DNA from: a virus
Taxonomy: Duplodnaviria; Heunggongvirae; Uroviricota; Caudoviricetes
DNA: 6,081 nucleotides
Virus record (IMG/VR): IMGVR_UViG_2645727640_000005
Span: 1 to 6,081 of that record
Direction: 5' to 3' (one strand)
The position numbers and the translations under genes were made by a program. A model generated the notes under the pieces. That model did not search any database, was not told where the DNA came from, and saw only the letters and a list, made by a program, of their open reading frames with translations. Below, piece after piece: positions 1 through 6,081 of the stretch; position 1 is the first letter of the stretch, and each line of letters begins with the position of its first letter.

Positions 1-49
1 GCATGACAAAGTCATCGGGCATTATCTGAACATAAAACACTATCAATAA

Positions 50-136
50 GTTGGAGTCATTACCCGCCTTATCGACATACTTAATCAGCCAGGAGTCCCA
101 AAAAATGGATCAAACACTTATGGCTATCCAGACTAA
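50..136 (+). pseudogene. cIII: cIII 3' remnant (C-terminal ~23 codons of lambda-like CIII, no start codon in window)
   Basis: Frame-2 translation of 65..136 gives [23 protein letters not shown], matching the C-terminus of lambda CIII as I recall it. Upstream, the same frame has an in-frame TAA at 47..49 and no ATG, and no frame of 1..64 encodes the CIII N-terminus or amphipathic helix. The kil ATG sits at the cIII 3' end, as in lambda. Confidence 0.4.
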
Positions 137-248
137 ATTCACTATCGCCACTTTTATTGGCGATGAAAAGATGTTTCGTGAAGCCGTCGACGCTTATAAA
201 AAATGGATATTAATGCTGAAACTGAGATCAAGCAAAAGCATTCACTAA
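105..248 (+). CDS. kil: Kil, host cell-division (FtsZ) inhibitor, 47 aa
   Basis: ATG at 105 inside the 51..248 track ORF gives a 47-aa product ([12 protein letters not shown]...[10 protein letters not shown]), the length and sequence I recall for lambda Kil. It sits upstream of and overlaps gam, as in lambda. The track ORF's 5' extension begins at TTG and is probably not used. Confidence 0.8.
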
Positions 249-619
249 CCCCCTTTCCTGTTTTCCTAATCAGCCCGGCATTTCGCGGGCGATATTTTCA
301 CAGCTATTTCAGGAGTTCAGCCATGAACGCTTATTACATTCAGGATCGTCTTGAGGCTCAGAGCTGGGCGCGTCACTACCAGCAGATCGCCCGTGAAGAG
401 AAAGAGGCAGAACTGGCAGACGATATGGAAAAAGGCCTGCCCCAGCACCTGTTTGAATCGCTATGCATCGATCATTTGCAACGCCACGGGGCCAGCAAAA
501 AAGCCATTACCCGTGCGTTTGATGACGATGTTGAGTTTCAGGAGCGCATGGCAGAACACATCCGGTACATGGTTGAAACCATTGCTCACCATCAGGTTGA
601 TATTGATTCAGAGGTATAA
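203..619 (+). CDS. gam: Gam, RecBCD inhibitor (full-length GamL form, 138 aa)
   Basis: 138-aa ORF that matches lambda Gam along its whole length as recalled ([20 protein letters not shown]...[10 protein letters not shown]). An internal ATG at 323 preceded by AGGAG (311..315) corresponds to the short GamS start. Synteny is kil-gam-bet-exo. Confidence 0.95.
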
Positions 620-624
620 AACGG

Positions 625-1410
625 ATGAGTACAGCACTCGCAACGCTGGCAGGGAAGCTGGCTGAACGTGTCGGCATGGATTCTGTCGACCCACAGGAAC
701 TGATCACCACTCTTCGCCAGACGGCATTTAAAGGCGATGCCAGCGATGCGCAGTTCATCGCATTGTTGATCGTCGCCAACCAGTACGGCCTTAATCCGTG
801 GACGAAAGAAATTTACGCCTTCCCTGACAAGCAGAACGGCATCGTTCCGGTGGTGGGCGTTGATGGCTGGTCCCGCATCATCAACGAAAACCAGCAGTTT
901 GACGGCATGGACTTTGAACAGGACAACGAATCCTGCACATGCCGGATTTACCGCAAAGACCGCAATCATCCGATCTGCGTTACCGAGTGGATGGATGAAT
1001 GCCGCCGCGAACCATTCAAAACCCGCGAAGGCAGAGAAATCACCGGACCGTGGCAGTCGCATCCCAAACGGATGTTACGGCATAAAGCCATGATTCAGTG
1101 TGCCCGTCTGGCCTTCGGATTTGCTGGTATCTATGACAAGGATGAAGCCGAGCGCATTGTCGAAAATACTGCATACACTGCAGAACGTCAGCCGGAACGC
1201 GACATCACTCCGGTTAACGATGAAACCATGCAGGAGATTAACACTCTGCTGATCGCCCTGGATAAAACATGGGATGACGACTTATTGCCGCTCTGTTCCC
1301 AGATATTTCGCCGCGACATTCGCGCATCGTCAGAACTGACACAGGCCGAAGCAGTGAAAGCTCTTGGATTCCTGAAACAGAAAGCCACTGAGCAGAAGGT
1401 GGCAGCATGA
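625..1410 (+). CDS. bet: Bet (Red-beta) single-strand annealing protein, 261 aa
   Basis: 261-aa ORF matching lambda Bet as recalled ([35 protein letters not shown]...). GAGG at 611..614 lies upstream of the ATG. Its stop overlaps the exo start in an ATGA junction (1407..1410). Confidence 0.95.
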
Positions 1411-2087
1411 CACCGGACATTATCCTGCAGCGTACCGGGATCGACGTGAGAGCTGTCGAACAGGGGGATGATGCATGGCACAAATTACGGCTCGGCGTCA
1501 TCACCGCTTCAGAAGTTCACAACGTGATAGCAAAGCCCCGCTCAGGAAAAAAGTGGCCTGACATGAAAATGTCCTACTTCCACACCCTGCTGGCTGAGGT
1601 TTGCACCGGTGTGGCTCCGGAAGTTAATGCTAAGGCGCTGGCCTGGGGAAAACAGTACGAGAACGACGCCAGAACCCTGTTTGAATTCACTTCCGGCGTG
1701 AATGTTACTGAATCCCCGATCATCTATCGCGACGAAAGTATGCGCACCGCCTGCTCTCCCGATGGTTTATGCAGTGACGGCAACGGCCTTGAACTGAAAT
1801 GCCCGTTTACCTCCCGGGATTTCATGAAGTTCCGGCTCGGTGGTTTCGAGGCCATAAAATCAGCTTACATGGCCCAGGTGCAGTACAGCATGTGGGTGAC
1901 GCGAAAAGATGCCTGGTACTTTGCCAACTATGACCCGCGTATGAAGCGTGAAGGCCTGCATTATGTCGTGATTGAGCGGAATGAAAAGTACATGGCGAAT
2001 TTTGACGAGATGGTGCCGGAGTTCATCGAAAAAATGGACGTGGCACTGGCTGAAATTGGTTTTGTATTTGGGGAGCAATGGCGATGA
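1407..2087 (+). CDS. exo: Exo (Red-alpha) 5'-3' dsDNA exonuclease, 226 aa
   Basis: 226-aa ORF matching lambda exonuclease as recalled ([40 protein letters not shown]...GEQWR). ATGA overlap with bet, as in lambda. Confidence 0.95.
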
Positions 2088-2245
2088 AGCATCCTCACGA
2101 TAATATCCGGGTAGGCGCGATCACTTTCATCTACTCCGTTACAAAGCGAGGCTGGGTATTTCCCGGCCTTTCTGTTATCAGAAATCCACTGAAAGCACAG
2201 CGGCTGGCTGAGGCGATAAATAATAAACGGGGGCTGTATGACTGA
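2084..2245 (+). CDS. small ORF (53 aa) coupled to exo; positional equivalent of lambda orf60a, with a different 3' end
   Basis: ATG 2084..2086 overlaps the exo stop (ATGA). It translates to [53 protein letters not shown]. Lambda has orf60a in this position with the same 4-nt overlap. The ORF is shorter than 60 codons and its end overlaps the methyltransferase start, consistent with a mosaic junction near 2180..2240. It is below the size cutoff of the ORF track. Confidence 0.45.
2150..2176 (+). terminator. putative intrinsic terminator (tL3-like) downstream of exo
   Basis: Hairpin GGCTGGG (2150..2156), loop TATTT, CCCGGCC (2162..2168), seven pairs including one G-T wobble, followed by the T-rich run TTTCTGTT. 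Lambda is known to have tL3 shortly downstream of exo; identity with tL3 is from position only. Confidence 0.35.
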
Positions 2246-2795
2246 TTTCACCGGAAGCAATACTCCTGCCGAACATCGCGACAGCTGGCGCACACCACCA
2301 GAGATTTTTGCTGCGCTTAATGCAGAGTTCGTTTTTCAACTTGATGCTGCCGCCAGCGAAAAAAACCGACTATGTCGGCTTTTTATCTCACAGGAGCAGA
2401 ACACATTAACCACTTCATGGCCTGAAGCAATGGGATATGCCTCTGGTTATGTCTGGTTGAATCCACCATACAGCAATATTTCCCCTTTTGTGAAAAAGGC
2501 AGCCACTGAAAACAAATTCAGTAGTGTGGGATGTGTAATGTTATTGCCTGCTGACACATCTGTCGGATGGTTTCATGAAGCGATACAAACCGCCAGTGAG
2601 GTCAGATTCATCACGGCAGGACGACTGGCATTTATTAACCCACTCACGGAGAAACCCGTCAGTGGAAATAATAAAGGCTCGATGCTCATTATCTGGCACC
2701 CATACCCCCGTACACACTGCCACTTTACGACCGTTGATCGTGGAGAGTTGATGGCGTTCGGCTCAAGGATTCTTGCCCGTCGGGAGGCTGCATGA
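2238..2795 (+). CDS. orphan phage-type DNA N6-adenine methyltransferase (phage Dam family), 185 aa
   Basis: 185-aa ORF with an N-terminal WRTPPEIF motif, an FQLDAAAS motif and the catalytic NPPY tetrad (WLNPPYSN), the hallmark of the small phage Dam methyltransferase family. GGGGG lies 4 nt upstream of the ATG. No restriction endonuclease partner is visible in the window. Confidence 0.85.
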   Translation: MTDFTGSNTPAEHRDSWRTPPEIFAALNAEFVFQLDAAASEKNRLCRLFISQEQNTLTTSWPEAMGYASGYVWLNPPYSNISPFVKKAATENKFSSVGCVMLLPADTSVGWFHEAIQTASEVRFITAGRLAFINPLTEKPVSGNNKGSMLIIWHPYPRTHCHFTTVDRGELMAFGSRILARREAA

Positions 2796-2875
2796 CAACC
2801 ACGGAATGCATTTTTCTGGCAGCGGGCTTCATATTCTGTGTGCTTATGCTTGCCGATATGGGACTTGTTCAATGA
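2792..2875 (+). CDS. possible 27-aa hydrophobic peptide, start and stop both in ATGA overlaps
   Basis: ATG 2792..2794 overlaps the methyltransferase stop (TGA 2793..2795). The ORF encodes MTTTECIFLAAGFIFCVLMLADMGLVQ and its TGA (2873..2875) overlaps the ATG (2872..2874) of the next gene. The hydrophobic core could form one transmembrane helix. It is below the track cutoff and could be chance. Confidence 0.3.
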   Translation: MTTTECIFLAAGFIFCVLMLADMGLVQ

Positions 2876-3087
2876 CACCTCAGCAGGAAAACGCCCTTCG
2901 CAGCATTGCCCGTCAGGCTAATTCTGAAATCAAAAAAGCCAGACAGCAGTTTCCGGATAAAAACGTCGATGACATTTGCCGTAGCGTACTGAAGAAGCAC
3001 CGCGAAACGGTAACGCTGATGGGATTCACACCGACTCACTTAAGTCTGGCAATCGGTATGTTAAACGGCGTCTTTAAGGAACGGTGA
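2872..3087 (+). CDS. hypothetical protein, 71 aa
   Basis: Inside the 2773..3087 track ORF. ATG 2872 gives MTPQQENALRSIARQANSEIKKARQQ...GVFKER. An alternative ATG at 2806 would give 93 aa, and the track start at 2773 is TTG. No motif recognised. The start choice is uncertain. Confidence 0.5.
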   Translation: MTPQQENALRSIARQANSEIKKARQQFPDKNVDDICRSVLKKHRETVTLMGFTPTHLSLAIGMLNGVFKER

Positions 3088-3107
3088 ACATGAAAAGCAA
3101 AATCATC

Positions 3108-3133
3108 AGGGAGCTACAGGCTCCTTTTTTATT
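3108..3133 (+). terminator. putative intrinsic terminator or attenuator between genes
   Basis: GGAGC (3110..3114), loop TACAG, GCTCC (3120..3124), immediately followed by TTTTTT (3125..3130). The stem is short, 5 bp extendable to 7 with a G-T pair. It lies within a possible 29-aa ORF (3090..3179). Confidence 0.4.
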
Positions 3134-3185
3134 ATTCGCATTCACCCTCAAGCGTATTAACCAACAATTCAGGGATTAATGAAAG

Positions 3186-3407
3186 ATGGCAGATATCATT
3201 GATTCAGCATCAGAAATTGAAGAATTACAGCGCAATACAGCAATAAAAATGCGTCGCCTGAACTACCAGACTGTATCCGCAACTCATTGTTGTGAGTGTG
3301 GCGATCCGATAGATGAACGAAGACGCCTGGCAGTTCAGGGTTGTCGGACTTGTGCAAGTTGCCAGGAGGATCTGGAGCTTATCAGTAAACAGAGAGGTTC
3401 GAAGTGA
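3186..3407 (+). CDS. TraR/DksA-family C4 zinc-finger protein, 73 aa
   Basis: Cys at residues 35, 38, 56 and 59 give C-x2-C-x17-C-x2-C with a GDPIDERRR segment between the pairs, the pattern of the phage and plasmid TraR/DksA zinc-finger family. Its stop overlaps the GTG start of the next gene. Confidence 0.7.
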   Translation: MADIIDSASEIEELQRNTAIKMRRLNYQTVSATHCCECGDPIDERRRLAVQGCRTCASCQEDLELISKQRGSK

Positions 3408-4090
3408 GCGAAATTAATTATCAGGCACTGCGTGAAAAGGCAGAGAAAGCAACTAAAGGAAGCTACATCGTAGGGCATACATCTGTTAACCAGCACGGCA
3501 ATTTAACAGGAGTTTTTGTTTGCCAAAAATGGAAAGGAGAACCCGGTGGTGTGATTGCGGAATGTCATGTTAACTGCCTGGTTGAAACAGATGTTCAGGC
3601 TTATGCAAACGCTGAATTTATTGCTGCTTTTAATCCAAATGTTGCGCTGGCACTACTGGATGAACGGGAAAGAAACCAGCAATACATCAAACGCCGCGAC
3701 CAGGAGAACGAGGAGATTGCGCTTACGGTTGGGAAGCTGCGCGTTGAGCTGGAAGCCGCAGAGAAGCGCAACGCAAAATTACAAAGCGAGAATGCATACA
3801 TCCGCAACCGGTACAAAGAACTGGACCTGTTAATCGGGAAAAACATTCTGGTCATGCAGGCTGCCATTATCGAATGGCAATCGACTGGCGACGCTAAAAG
3901 CGGACTGGCATGGATTTATAACACACTGTTTGGCCCAGGCGAATTGCCGGACGAATCTGAGAAAGATGCTCAGGCCTACTTTAATCGCAAATATGCACCG
4001 ATTGACGAAAAGCTTATGGCGCTTCACAAGTGGTTTTGGGAACAAAGTGAAGCCAAGCGCGCCGCTGGCATTCGCATCAAAGGAGAGTGA
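3404..4090 (+). CDS. Ead/Ea22-like coiled-coil protein, 228 aa
   Basis: GTG start at 3404 with AGAGAGG 6 nt upstream. The N-terminus (INYQALREKAEKATKGS) and the NAEFIAAFNPNVALALLDE segment resemble the conserved motifs of prophage Ead/Ea22-like proteins as I recall them. The central region (LTVGKLRVELEAAEKRNAKLQSENAYIRNRYKELD) is a heptad-like coiled coil. Confidence 0.6.
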   Translation: MSEINYQALREKAEKATKGSYIVGHTSVNQHGNLTGVFVCQKWKGEPGGVIAECHVNCLVETDVQAYANAEFIAAFNPNVALALLDERERNQQYIKRRDQENEEIALTVGKLRVELEAAEKRNAKLQSENAYIRNRYKELDLLIGKNILVMQAAIIEWQSTGDAKSGLAWIYNTLFGPGELPDESEKDAQAYFNRKYAPIDEKLMALHKWFWEQSEAKRAAGIRIKGE

Positions 4091-4091
4091 G

Positions 4092-4607
4092 ATGGCGTTA
4101 ACACACCGAGAACTCTGTCAGATTGCGTACAAGTTCCTTAAGCGCAACGGGTTCAAGGTTTGCTTTCATGACCGCTTTATAGCCGTAACCAGTACCGGAG
4201 AACAGCCAGATGCTATGGGATTCAGAAATTCAGCATCATGCCTGATAGAGGCGAAATGTTCTCGTGCTGACTTGTTGGCAGATAGAAAAAAGCGTTTTCG
4301 TAAAAATCCGTCTCTTGGAATGGGAGACTGGCGATTCTTTATTAGTGAGCCGGGAACTATTTCAATTGAGGATTTACCACCTGGCTGGGGATTACTTCAC
4401 GTTGTTAACGGAAGAGTACGGAAAGTACATGGATGGCCCAAGGGGAATTGCTGTTGGGGTAACCCTGAGGATAAACCTTTTATTGGGAATAAGCAGGTTG
4501 AATGCGATTACATGTTGTCTGCCTTAAGGCGCATGGAGTTGAGAGGGCACCTTAATGAAATATATGACGGTGTAATTGTTAATAAGAAAGAAGGAAACGC
4601 GGCATGA
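4092..4607 (+). CDS. hypothetical protein with PD-(D/E)xK nuclease-like motif, 171 aa
   Basis: ATG 4092 with GGAG 6 nt upstream. The track ORF 3930..4607 extends 5' in another frame of the upstream gene and is not used. The N-terminal 60 aa have a helix, two strands, PD at residue 40 and hhEAK at 53-55 (FIAVTSTGEQPD...SCLIEAK), the canonical PD-(D/E)xK arrangement. The C-terminal 100 aa are Trp/Cys-rich (GNCCWGNPED, VECDY) and not recognised. A nuclease function is inferred from the motif only. Confidence 0.55.
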   Translation: MALTHRELCQIAYKFLKRNGFKVCFHDRFIAVTSTGEQPDAMGFRNSASCLIEAKCSRADLLADRKKRFRKNPSLGMGDWRFFISEPGTISIEDLPPGWGLLHVVNGRVRKVHGWPKGNCCWGNPEDKPFIGNKQVECDYMLSALRRMELRGHLNEIYDGVIVNKKEGNAA

Positions 4608-5491
4608 TCACTATTACCAAAGGGCGACTGCTGACAATCAAACAGTGGCGCGAAACATACGGACCTGGTAGCAACGTTGTACTGCCAGCAGAAGAAGCGG
4701 AAGAACTGGCACGAATTGCTCTGGCAGCGCTGGAAGCCGAGCCGATAGGTTTCCGTTGCAGGCGCAATGATAACCTTGGTGATTGGAGTTACGTATATCA
4801 TCGAGAGCCAGATGATTTTGAGCGCAAACATTTAGTGATAGAGGGCATTTACGCCGCCCCTCCAGCACCAGTAGTACCGGAAGAAAAACCAATGCCTAAT
4901 CCTCTTAGCATGTACGCGGTTGATGCTGTTGCCGCTATTGCAGAGGTGAGAGGCTGGAACGCCTGCCGTGCCGCTATGCTTCAGTCCGGAAACTTTCGGG
5001 AAAACAAGAATTCGTCAACCAATAATTTTCGGGAAATCGCGGAAACGTCAACCAACTATCCGGTAATTCCTAGTGAGGTGTTGTCCGCAATCCTGAAGGT
5101 TGCCAAGATTCGTGCCGATGTCGATGATTTTGACGGTGACAGGCGAGGTATCGGTGATTGTCTGGATGAGGCTGAGCAAGAGCTTATCGTTACCATTAAC
5201 AAATATGCCAGTCAGTTGGCAGCAGAACCTATAGCGCCTAATGACGTTCGAGAGCAGACAGCCATTCCACAAGTTCCGGTGACTCCGGATGGTTGGATAA
5301 GCTGTAGTGAGCGAATGCCGAATACCAAAACAGCCGTTCTTGTTGCCGTGGAGTTTGACAGGAAAGGTGACTGGCGAATGAAATGGGCTACTTACATCCC
5401 GGGGCATCCTGACGCTAATGATGGGTGGATAATTCCTGGTGCGTCGTGGAAACCGTCACACTGGATGCCGCTACCAGAGCCTCCACTTTGA
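4604..5491 (+). CDS. DUF551-type prophage protein, 295 aa, with internal tandem repeat
   Basis: ATG 4604 overlaps the upstream stop (ATGA) and AAGGAA lies 7 nt upstream. The C-terminal ~70 aa (WISCSERMPNTKTAVLVAVEF...GWIIPGASWKPSHWMPLPEPP) match the DUF551 signature of prophage proteins as I recall it. The N-terminal half is acidic and helical. Confidence 0.75.
   Translation: MITITKGRLLTIKQWRETYGPGSNVVLPAEEAEELARIALAALEAEPIGFRCRRNDNLGDWSYVYHREPDDFERKHLVIEGIYAAPPAPVVPEEKPMPNPLSMYAVDAVAAIAEVRGWNACRAAMLQSGNFRENKNSSTNNFREIAETSTNYPVIPSEVLSAILKVAKIRADVDDFDGDRRGIGDCLDEAEQELIVTINKYASQLAAEPIAPNDVREQTAIPQVPVTPDGWISCSERMPNTKTAVLVAVEFDRKGDWRMKWATYIPGHPDANDGWIIPGASWKPSHWMPLPEPPL
4991..5056 (+). repeat. 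imperfect 33-bp tandem direct repeat (2 copies) in frame within the DUF551 gene
   Basis: Copy 1 (4991..5023) AACTTTCGGGAAAACAAGAATTCGTCAACCAAT and copy 2 (5024..5056) AATTTTCGGGAAATCGCGGAAACGTCAACCAAC match at 25 of 33 positions. They encode NFRENKNSSTN and NFREIAETSTN. Confidence 0.8.
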
Positions 5492-5587
5492 AAGCGAAGC
5501 TTATACATATCTTTTACATCAGCAATCTATTGTTAATCTCCAATCAATGTTACGTTGTCATCTCACTCATGCTTTGGAGTTAGTGAT

Positions 5588-5767
5588 ATGTCTTGTCCAA
5601 AATGCGGTTCTGGAAATATTGCAAAAGAAAAAACAATGCGTGGATGGTCTGGTGATTATGTGTGCTGCGATTGCGGATACAACGACTCTAAAGACGCATT
5701 TGGAGAGCGTGGTAAAAACGAGTTTGTCAAAATTAATAAAGAACGCGAAGGCAACGAAAAAAGCTAA
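5588..5767 (+). CDS. small zinc-ribbon protein, 59 aa
   Basis: ATG 5588 with GGAG (5575..5578) upstream. The track start at 5555 is TTG. Cys at residues 3, 6, 26 and 29 give C-x2-C-x19-C-x2-C, and the C-terminus is Lys/Glu-rich. Codon usage is AT-rich. It is followed by a terminator and sits immediately upstream of xis, in the position of lambda's small unnamed ORF and ea8.5. Confidence 0.55.
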   Translation: MSCPKCGSGNIAKEKTMRGWSGDYVCCDCGYNDSKDAFGERGKNEFVKINKEREGNEKS

Positions 5768-5830
5768 TTTATTATTCATATATGAAAACAATGTAACCAA
5801 TATTCGAATTGAAGAACTGAAAGAACACCA

Positions 5831-5852
5831 AGCCGCCTGATGGCGGTTTTTT
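5831..5852 (+). terminator. putative intrinsic terminator upstream of xis
   Basis: CCGCC (5833..5837), loop TGAT, GGCGG (5842..5846), extendable by A-T and G-T pairs, followed by TTTTTT (5847..5852). Confidence 0.5.
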
Positions 5853-5879
5853 CTTGCGTGTAATTGCGGAGACTTTGCG

Positions 5880-6081
5880 ATGTACTTGACACTTCAGGAG
5901 TGGAACGCTCGCCAGCGACGCCCAAGAAGCCTTGAAACAGTTCGTCGATGGGTGCGCGAATGCAGGATATTCCCTCCTCCGGTTAAGGATGGCAGAGAGT
6001 ATCTGTTCCACGAATCAGCGGTAAAGGTTGACTTAAATCGACCAGTAACAGGTAGCCTTTTGAAGAGGATCAGAAATGGGA
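5880..6081 (+). CDS. xis: Xis excisionase, 5' partial (first 67 codons; runs off window end)
   Basis: ATG 5880 with GGAG 8 nt upstream. Translation MYLTLQEWNARQRRPRSLETVRRWVRECRIFPPPVKDGREYLFHESAVKVDLNRPVTGSLLKRIRNG matches lambda Xis (72 aa) as recalled. It is absent from the ORF track because no stop lies within the window. Confidence 0.9.
   Translation, partial: MYLTLQEWNARQRRPRSLETVRRWVRECRIFPPPVKDGREYLFHESAVKVDLNRPVTGSLLKRIRNG

Follow-up and report, generated by a model that had tools for sequence, protein, structure and literature searches.

The DNA considered here, referred to throughout as the window, is a stretch of 6,081 nucleotides (IMG/VR virus record IMGVR_UViG_2645727640_000005, positions 1 to 6,081), the plus strand of which carries the exo–xis part of the early leftward (pL) operon of a lambdoid prophage. 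The subject of this report is an open reading frame (ORF) of 27 codons at 2792–2875, the product of which would be the peptide MTTTECIFLAAGFIFCVLMLADMGLVQ; it is referred to below as the small ORF and, like every feature given below without a strand, it lies on the plus strand. Its upstream partner is the gene for a phage Dam N6-adenine methyltransferase of 185 amino acids (2238–2795), assigned by Pfam PF05869 (E = 2e-56) and by the RefSeq annotation of near-identical prophages; in most relatives this gene is replaced by orf63 (DUF1382). Downstream follows an orf61-type gene of 71 amino acids (2872–3087; PHROG 303, E = 5e-36). A Shine–Dalgarno (SD) sequence, GGGAGG, is located at 2782–2787 within the 3' end of the methyltransferase gene, 4 nt upstream of ATG 2792. 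The original prediction, which had been made from the letters of the window, described ATGA overlaps at both ends of the small ORF, and its coordinates proved exact: the ATG at 2792–2794 runs into the TGA at 2793–2795 that terminates the methyltransferase gene (overlap 2792–2795), and the TGA at 2873–2875 that terminates the small ORF runs into the ATG at 2872–2874 of the 71-residue frame (overlap 2872–2875).

It had further been held that an ORF of this length would rarely fit by chance between two such junctions. This argument was not borne out, as the frame was open in 23–28% of shuffles with two ATGA motifs placed 80 nt apart, and the frame that extends orf61 upstream across the small ORF (the extension frame) is likewise open. 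The exact fit of the small ORF in the gap results from an 80-nt insertion at a conserved ATGAC junction, as described below. Two features do exceed chance: the hydrophobicity of the peptide and the pattern of substitution among its relatives. Among the ORFs of at least 20 codons in the window the small ORF is the most hydrophobic. The best 15-residue Kyte–Doolittle mean of the peptide is 2.87, a value matched by none of 20,000 random open ORFs of the window composition and by 19 of 20,000 random ORFs of the composition of the spacer itself. An uncharged hydrophobic core (C6–A21) is flanked by E5 and D22; at 16 residues this core is short for a full membrane span, and D22 interrupts a 20-residue stretch. 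Searches of the peptide against Pfam, PHROG and NCBIfam profiles gave no significant match (best E = 0.68 and 0.034, below the cut-offs).

Two other accounts of the locus were tried and rejected. An RNA element was not indicated by the minimum free energy of folding of 2770–2900 (z = −0.08) or by any Rfam match at E ≤ 1. A programmed −1 frameshift fusing the peptide to Orf61 was dismissed on the grounds that the small-ORF frame contains no slippery heptamer of the form X XXY YYZ and that the extension frame is also not conserved as protein.

Substitution pattern and distribution of the small frame

Loci covering the ORF were collected from IMG/VR, metagenomes, E. coli genomes and phage records. 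The resulting 340 loci were collapsed to 168 distinct haplotypes and duplicate contigs were removed. The peptide is identical in 296 of the loci and the 27-codon frame is intact in 164 of the haplotypes; the exceptions include Q27*, which is found in three loci and keeps a TAATG overlap, and a frameshift in one metagenome singleton. A comparison of synonymous with non-synonymous change, which had been suggested as a check on the small ORF, showed that it evolves as a coding frame. Variants present in at least two haplotypes divide into ten synonymous and four non-synonymous (P = 0.001) and those present in at least five haplotypes into eight and one (P = 0.0003), both against an expectation of 28% synonymous, and synonymous variants are commoner than non-synonymous ones (Mann–Whitney P = 0.001). 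The common variants, defined as those above 5% frequency (2800A, 2803A, 2803T, 2824A, 2857C/T, 2863G and 2872G), are synonymous to non-synonymous in a ratio of 7:0 in the small-ORF frame, 0:7 in the extension frame and 0:7 in the third sense frame. The corresponding ratios are 12:0 for orf61 itself and 4:3 for a 31-codon ORF that follows it. Expressed as events per site, the ratio of non-synonymous to synonymous polymorphism (pN/pS) is 0.24 in the small ORF, compared with 0.50 in orf61; in the extension frame, where the recurrent variants amount to 3 synonymous and 15 non-synonymous, it reaches 1.77. In the extension frame the change 2803 G>T cuts off TTG 2773 in 133 of the 340 loci.

Of 5,426 complete E. 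coli genomes, 3,144 contain the small ORF, at 4,260 places in all; it is also carried by the Stx-converting phages of enterohaemorrhagic E. coli (EHEC). A tblastn search of 50,697 phage records located it in 175 of them at ≥92% identity, and no more distant relative of the peptide was returned from the phages at E ≤ 10, all matches being to this same locus. In many phages the alignment begins at window position 2790–2792; the small ORF and orf61 therefore travel as a unit, behind orf63 in most copies or behind the methyltransferase gene. The ATGA overlap at the start of the small ORF is retained in every upstream context seen, whether methyltransferase or orf63. An orf61 lacking the small ORF, of the type found in E. 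coli phage PhiR5_1 (MTIEHNNALRS..., 7 nt after a gene of 250 amino acids), occurs at 101 places in 100 E. coli genomes. One further locus, in E. coli OkiPb01713 (L232, 801–837), is a rearranged prophage remnant: a pseudogene of antiterminator Q, truncated and inverted, runs up to the middle of the small ORF, of which only the last ~30 nt are retained before an intact orf61, and the locus is uninformative.

The orf61 start, the inserted segment and proposed translational coupling

According to the competing explanation named in the original prediction, the small frame is untranslated and orf61 starts at ATG 2806, giving a protein of 93 amino acids, or at TTG 2773, so that 2792–2871 would encode an N-terminal extension. 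In all loci the extension frame is indeed free of stops after ATG 2806, the 93-residue form is the one annotated in many phage records, and PHROG 303 includes the extension. Against this, the changes in the extension frame are mainly non-synonymous, as given above, and 2803 G>T creates a TGA in that frame immediately before ATG 2806; TTG 2773 and an upstream ATG of the lambda type are therefore eliminated. TTG 2773 is moreover nonexistent where orf63 is the upstream gene, and ATG 2806 has no SD sequence (−2.6 kcal/mol, spacer 0). Homologues of orf61 from Klebsiella, Enterobacter and Vibrio phages (30–47% identity) align from residue 1 of the 71-residue protein, and the orf61 of PhiR5_1 also begins at the Met equivalent to 2872. 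In published models of the 93-residue form (PMC8614690) residues 1–23 were left out of the model statistics as structurally dissimilar, the two predictions disagreeing there, and the fold search used residues 24–93. The true start of orf61 is ATG 2872 rather than ATG 2806 or TTG 2773, and a reading in which the small frame is nothing but an untranslated part of a longer orf61 is improbable. In 39 of the 340 loci the change 2872 A>G turns this start from ATG into GTG, itself a start codon; in the small ORF the change is silent. In the haplotypes listed the GTG start co-occurs with 2863 A>G, by which GGGA becomes GGGG in the weak SD region; this pairing could be compensatory.

The origin of the small ORF was traced by comparison with 70 loci of the Klebsiella type. 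These have at least six different upstream genes, all of which join orf61 through ..GGAGGCAGC-ATGAC.. or ..GGGGGTCGC-ATGAC.., with no small ORF and with the upstream stop overlapping the orf61 ATG. The Klebsiella orthologue of the methyltransferase (66–72% identity over the full length, with an identical REAA* end) is joined to orf61 directly (GGAGGC-GC-ATGAC). Compared with this arrangement, the flanks in the window are orthologous but stand 80 nt further apart, and the additional segment is bordered on each side by ATGACA; the small ORF is accordingly an insertion specific to its lineage. The SD sequence at 2782–2787 does not differ from the one by which orf61 is served directly in Klebsiella phages; the small ORF has taken over the ribosome-binding site used by orf61 elsewhere. 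A source for the 80 nt was not found: the phage tblastn search returned only the same locus, and local repeats, apart from the terminal ATGACA, are short and not above chance. As a separate observation, the unrelated upstream genes, at least six in number, of the Klebsiella loci (L235–L305, at about 985–1005) share an end of ~10 nt, ..GGAGGCAGC-ATGA. The mosaic breakpoints therefore fall within the upstream gene by a few codons, and orf61 carries the ribosome-binding site along with it.

The duplex of the SD sequence preceding ATG 2792 with the 3' end of 16S rRNA was calculated at −10.3 kcal/mol, the strongest among the starts tested in the region. The SD sequence of orf61 itself, before ATG 2872, is weak at −3.9 kcal/mol, compared with −10.3 kcal/mol at the direct joint in Klebsiella and −5.6 kcal/mol in PhiR5_1. 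The small ORF thus has the arrangement of a coupled cistron, with overlaps at both ends and a downstream gene that lacks an adequate ribosome-binding site of its own. In the mechanism proposed here, ribosomes would initiate at ATG 2792, either recruited by GGGAGG or reinitiating after the overlapping TGA of the upstream gene; the strong SD sequence would provide entry in the methyltransferase context and termination–reinitiation would do so in the orf63 context. They would end at TGA 2873–2875 and start again at the ATG or GTG of orf61 that overlaps it; the small ORF would in this way relay translation along the exo–xis part of the pL operon. The 27-residue peptide would most likely be inserted into the inner membrane during early lytic growth and act there on a membrane component of the host or of the phage. 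The data show the anatomy of the locus, its conservation, the coding type of substitution, the history of the insertion and the strengths of the ribosome-binding sites, whereas translation of the small ORF, a need of orf61 for coupling, insertion into the membrane and any target are inferred.

An alternative is that translation of the small frame serves solely as a relay for orf61, the peptide being a by-product with no function of its own. The overlaps at both ends and the weak SD sequence of orf61 are equally those of a relay, the same operon has other tiny linker ORFs (the 31-residue one being little constrained) and other phages have a working orf61 with no small ORF beside it. A mere relay would, however, tolerate changes in length, yet 27 codons are kept in nearly all haplotypes (164 of 168); all of the common variants are synonymous and the non-synonymous ones are rare; and an arbitrary relay would not be expected to be so extremely hydrophobic. 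This alternative is considered unlikely. Constraint at the amino-acid level is the reason for supposing that the peptide probably has its own function, which would most plausibly be exerted in the inner membrane during early lytic growth. The small ORF can be regarded with good confidence as a real, overlooked small gene. The full model, in which it is a translated gene for a small membrane peptide that is translationally coupled at both ends, is assigned a probability of roughly 0.65.

Several observations weigh against this model. The peptide contains neither K nor R, its sole charges being those of E5 and D22; it therefore offers no basic flank of the kind demanded by the positive-inside rule, and the lack of basic residues is unusual for a membrane anchor. 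The SD sequence of the small ORF in the orf63 context is weak (−3.1 to −5.6 kcal/mol). The 27-residue ORF is not among the extra ORFs of lambda ribosome profiling as these are cited in PMC8614690. The family is narrow, being confined to Escherichia and at least 92% identical, and the selection test rests on 25 variable positions. The small ORF is missing beside ~2% of the E. coli copies of orf61 and beside all distant homologues, and the existence of such copies means that it is not needed for orf61 as such. Finally, a frame on the minus strand that shares its wobble positions is also rich in synonymous change, with six synonymous and one non-synonymous common variants.

This last point allows a further rival, namely that the wobble pattern is due to a gene on the minus strand (2832–2725), where an ORF is open, and not to the small ORF. 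The synonymous excess on the minus strand is, however, an arithmetical consequence of the shared wobble positions, and the common synonymous sites 2857, 2863 and 2872 fall outside the antisense ORF in the window. The start of this ORF shifts, its remaining two thirds are antisense to the methyltransferase gene or to orf63 depending on the context, it has no SD sequence and promoter-like matches are not above chance. A gene on the minus strand is hardly credible as the cause. The antisense ORF encodes 35 amino acids in the window and 61 in lambda (L004, 1442–1627), and it constitutes a trap for frame-based conservation tests.

Annotation in phage lambda and the rest of the operon

An identical 27-residue ORF is present in phage lambda (NC_001416, complement of 31008–30925), where its ATG overlaps the TGA of orf63 and where it is hidden beneath the 5' end of the annotated orf61. 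The latter (61 amino acids, 31024–30839) is a composite of three parts. The first is read from an upstream ATG in an alternative frame across the small ORF; the second, MTPQQENALRSIARQANSEIKK, is the start of the real protein; and the third follows a frameshift at a run of seven A (about 30860–30870 of NC_001416), where the window, at 2932–2937, and most natural lambdoid phages have six. The truncated Orf61 of 61 residues in lambda results from this extra A, which shifts the orf61-type frame. The extra A was found in 24 of 353 aligned loci, including DE3 and contigs that resemble contamination with laboratory lambda. Assemblies assigned to Shewanella, Bradyrhizobium, Pseudomonas, Paenibacillus, Kitasatospora, Oceanobacillus and others (L009–L022) have the region with a frameshifted 214-nt match; several of these are on contigs of ~48.4 kb, and they are almost certainly lambda DNA contaminating those assemblies. 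The matches in the genome collection outside Escherichia were mostly contaminant lambda DNA of this kind and were of no use for measuring divergence.

Elsewhere the start of orf61 is annotated in two ways. The 93-residue form, starting at the equivalent of ATG 2806, is used in the Stx-phage literature and in many records, including those of 933W, BP-4795 and Phi24B. The 71-residue form is found in RefSeq (PGAP) and in the records of phage 434 and Lambda_ev017, which leave a gap of 76 nt unannotated. The small ORF is annotated neither in the lambda reference record nor in the other phage or RefSeq prophage records that were inspected. The exact peptide is nevertheless present in protein databases, where some E. 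coli submissions list it as a 'hypothetical protein' (for example UniRef A0A0A2SGE8, found on 981 contigs). It is not mentioned in the exo–xis literature searched, and neither the peptide nor its DNA is present in the ribosome-profiling supplements for EHEC Sakai, an absence that is expected because early prophage genes are repressed under the conditions used. Ribosome density assigned to 'orf61' would not by itself separate the overlapping frames.

The small ORF is part of a longer run of genes in which all junctions are stop/start overlaps (ATGA, GTGA, TAATG or 8 nt). Upstream of the methyltransferase gene lie bet/recT (625–1410), exo (1407–2087) and orf60a/DUF1317 (2084–2245), the last assigned by homology. 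Downstream of orf61, the 31-codon ORF (3084–3179) has a GTGA overlap with the orf61 stop and the same length as lambda orf2313; it is annotated with 29 amino acids in phage 434. It is followed by a 7-codon ORF (3179–3202, MKDGRYH) of the same length as lambda orf2311, which has a TAATG overlap with the 31-codon ORF and itself overlaps the start of orf73 at 3186. The run continues with orf73, encoding a TraR/DksA protein (3186–3407), and an Ea22-like gene (3404–4090). As reported in PMC8614690, ribosome profiling of lambda added to the exo–xis block only the 7-residue orf2311 and the 31-residue orf2313; the reported translation of these two tiny overlapping neighbours is a point in favour of the model. 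A hairpin resembling an intrinsic terminator lies inside the 31-codon ORF at 3108–3126 (AGGGAGC-TAC-AGGCTCCTT, then TTTTATTATT, with the T-run extending to 3136); positioned between orf61 and orf73, it matches the predicted terminator t2 of the exo–xis literature.

The overlap of the frames bears on published deletions. The recombineering primers used for the orf61 deletion of lambda (PMC4699033) keep nucleotides 1–37 of the small ORF and remove the equivalent of window 2829–2911, which corresponds to codons 13–27 of the small ORF together with codons 1–13 of orf61. Because such alleles also destroy the small ORF, orf61 deletion phenotypes are inseparable from loss of the peptide, and this matters most in lambda, where Orf61 is truncated by the frameshift. 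One may tentatively suppose, although it is rather doubtful, that the peptide and not Orf61 lies behind some of the published 'orf61' phenotypes of lambda; it would then be a lineage-specific, possibly de novo membrane factor of early lytic growth that influences the decision between lysis and lysogeny or host physiology. If the model is correct, the published deletion phenotypes would need to be re-assigned, and the start of orf61 would have to be corrected to the 71-residue form, the 61-residue lambda and 93-residue Stx-phage versions being artefacts of annotation. The exo–xis block would become an uninterrupted chain of translationally coupled cistrons, and a young 80-nt insertion would have become a constrained peptide gene, which would make a compact case for the birth of small genes in phages. 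Although lambda is among the best-annotated genomes, the frame is missing from its reference record, and more than half of the complete E. coli genomes contain it. The result would be useful to those working on lambda and Stx phages; it would not amount to a new principle.

Comparison with known small genes

The original prediction had likened the peptide to type I toxins, to Kil and to exclusion peptides, and none of these likenesses was upheld. A type I toxin or a Kil-like host-killing peptide is suggested by small size and very strong hydrophobicity and by the presence of kil in the same pL early operon. The peptide is likewise small and hydrophobic when set beside Hok, TisB, Ibs and ShoB, but it differs from these toxins in having no antitoxin RNA, no transcription unit of its own and no homology to them. 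It matches no family in Pfam, PHROGs or NCBIfam. In the region of the small ORF two promoter-like matches were found against 1.3 expected and two terminator-like matches against 0.9, both at chance level, and no Rfam match or signal of an antisense RNA was obtained. The DNA upstream of the small ORF, which is relevant to the question of a type I antitoxin, differs between contexts. Instead of forming an independent transcription unit, the small ORF is locked by 4-nt overlaps in the pL chain bet–exo–orf60a–methyltransferase–27-residue ORF–orf61. Kil of lambda is an early pL gene, as is the small ORF, but there is no homology between them and Kil is not a membrane peptide. A function as a toxin or killing peptide is thus quite improbable. 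Exclusion genes are usually expressed from the prophage, whereas the small ORF lies in an early lytic operon that is repressed in lysogens.

A closer likeness is offered by the small inner-membrane proteins of E. coli that have a single helix and are encoded within operons, such as KdpF (29 amino acids), MgtS (31), CydX (37) and AcrZ (49). The candidate peptide shares with them its length class, a putative single hydrophobic helix, a polycistronic message and the fact of being routinely missed in annotation. It differs in that there is no sequence relation, in being phage-borne and limited to lambdoid phages of Escherichia, and in having acidic flanks with no basic residues. Within lambda itself, orf2313 (31 amino acids) and orf2311 (7 amino acids) belong to the same operon, have the same style of stop/start overlap (GTGA, TAATG) and are unannotated in the reference genome. 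The 27-residue ORF is distinguished from the 31-residue one by its strong hydrophobicity and by clear constraint among the common variants, for which the figures are given above.

In the concept of Hendrix, phage morons are extra genes inserted between genes that are adjacent in related phages. Like a moron, the small ORF separates orf61 from the methyltransferase gene or orf63 in E. coli phages, and it is lacking where the orthologous genes meet in Klebsiella phages. It differs from a moron in measuring only 80 nt and in having no promoter or terminator of its own; its expression is proposed to depend instead on translational coupling within the early operon.

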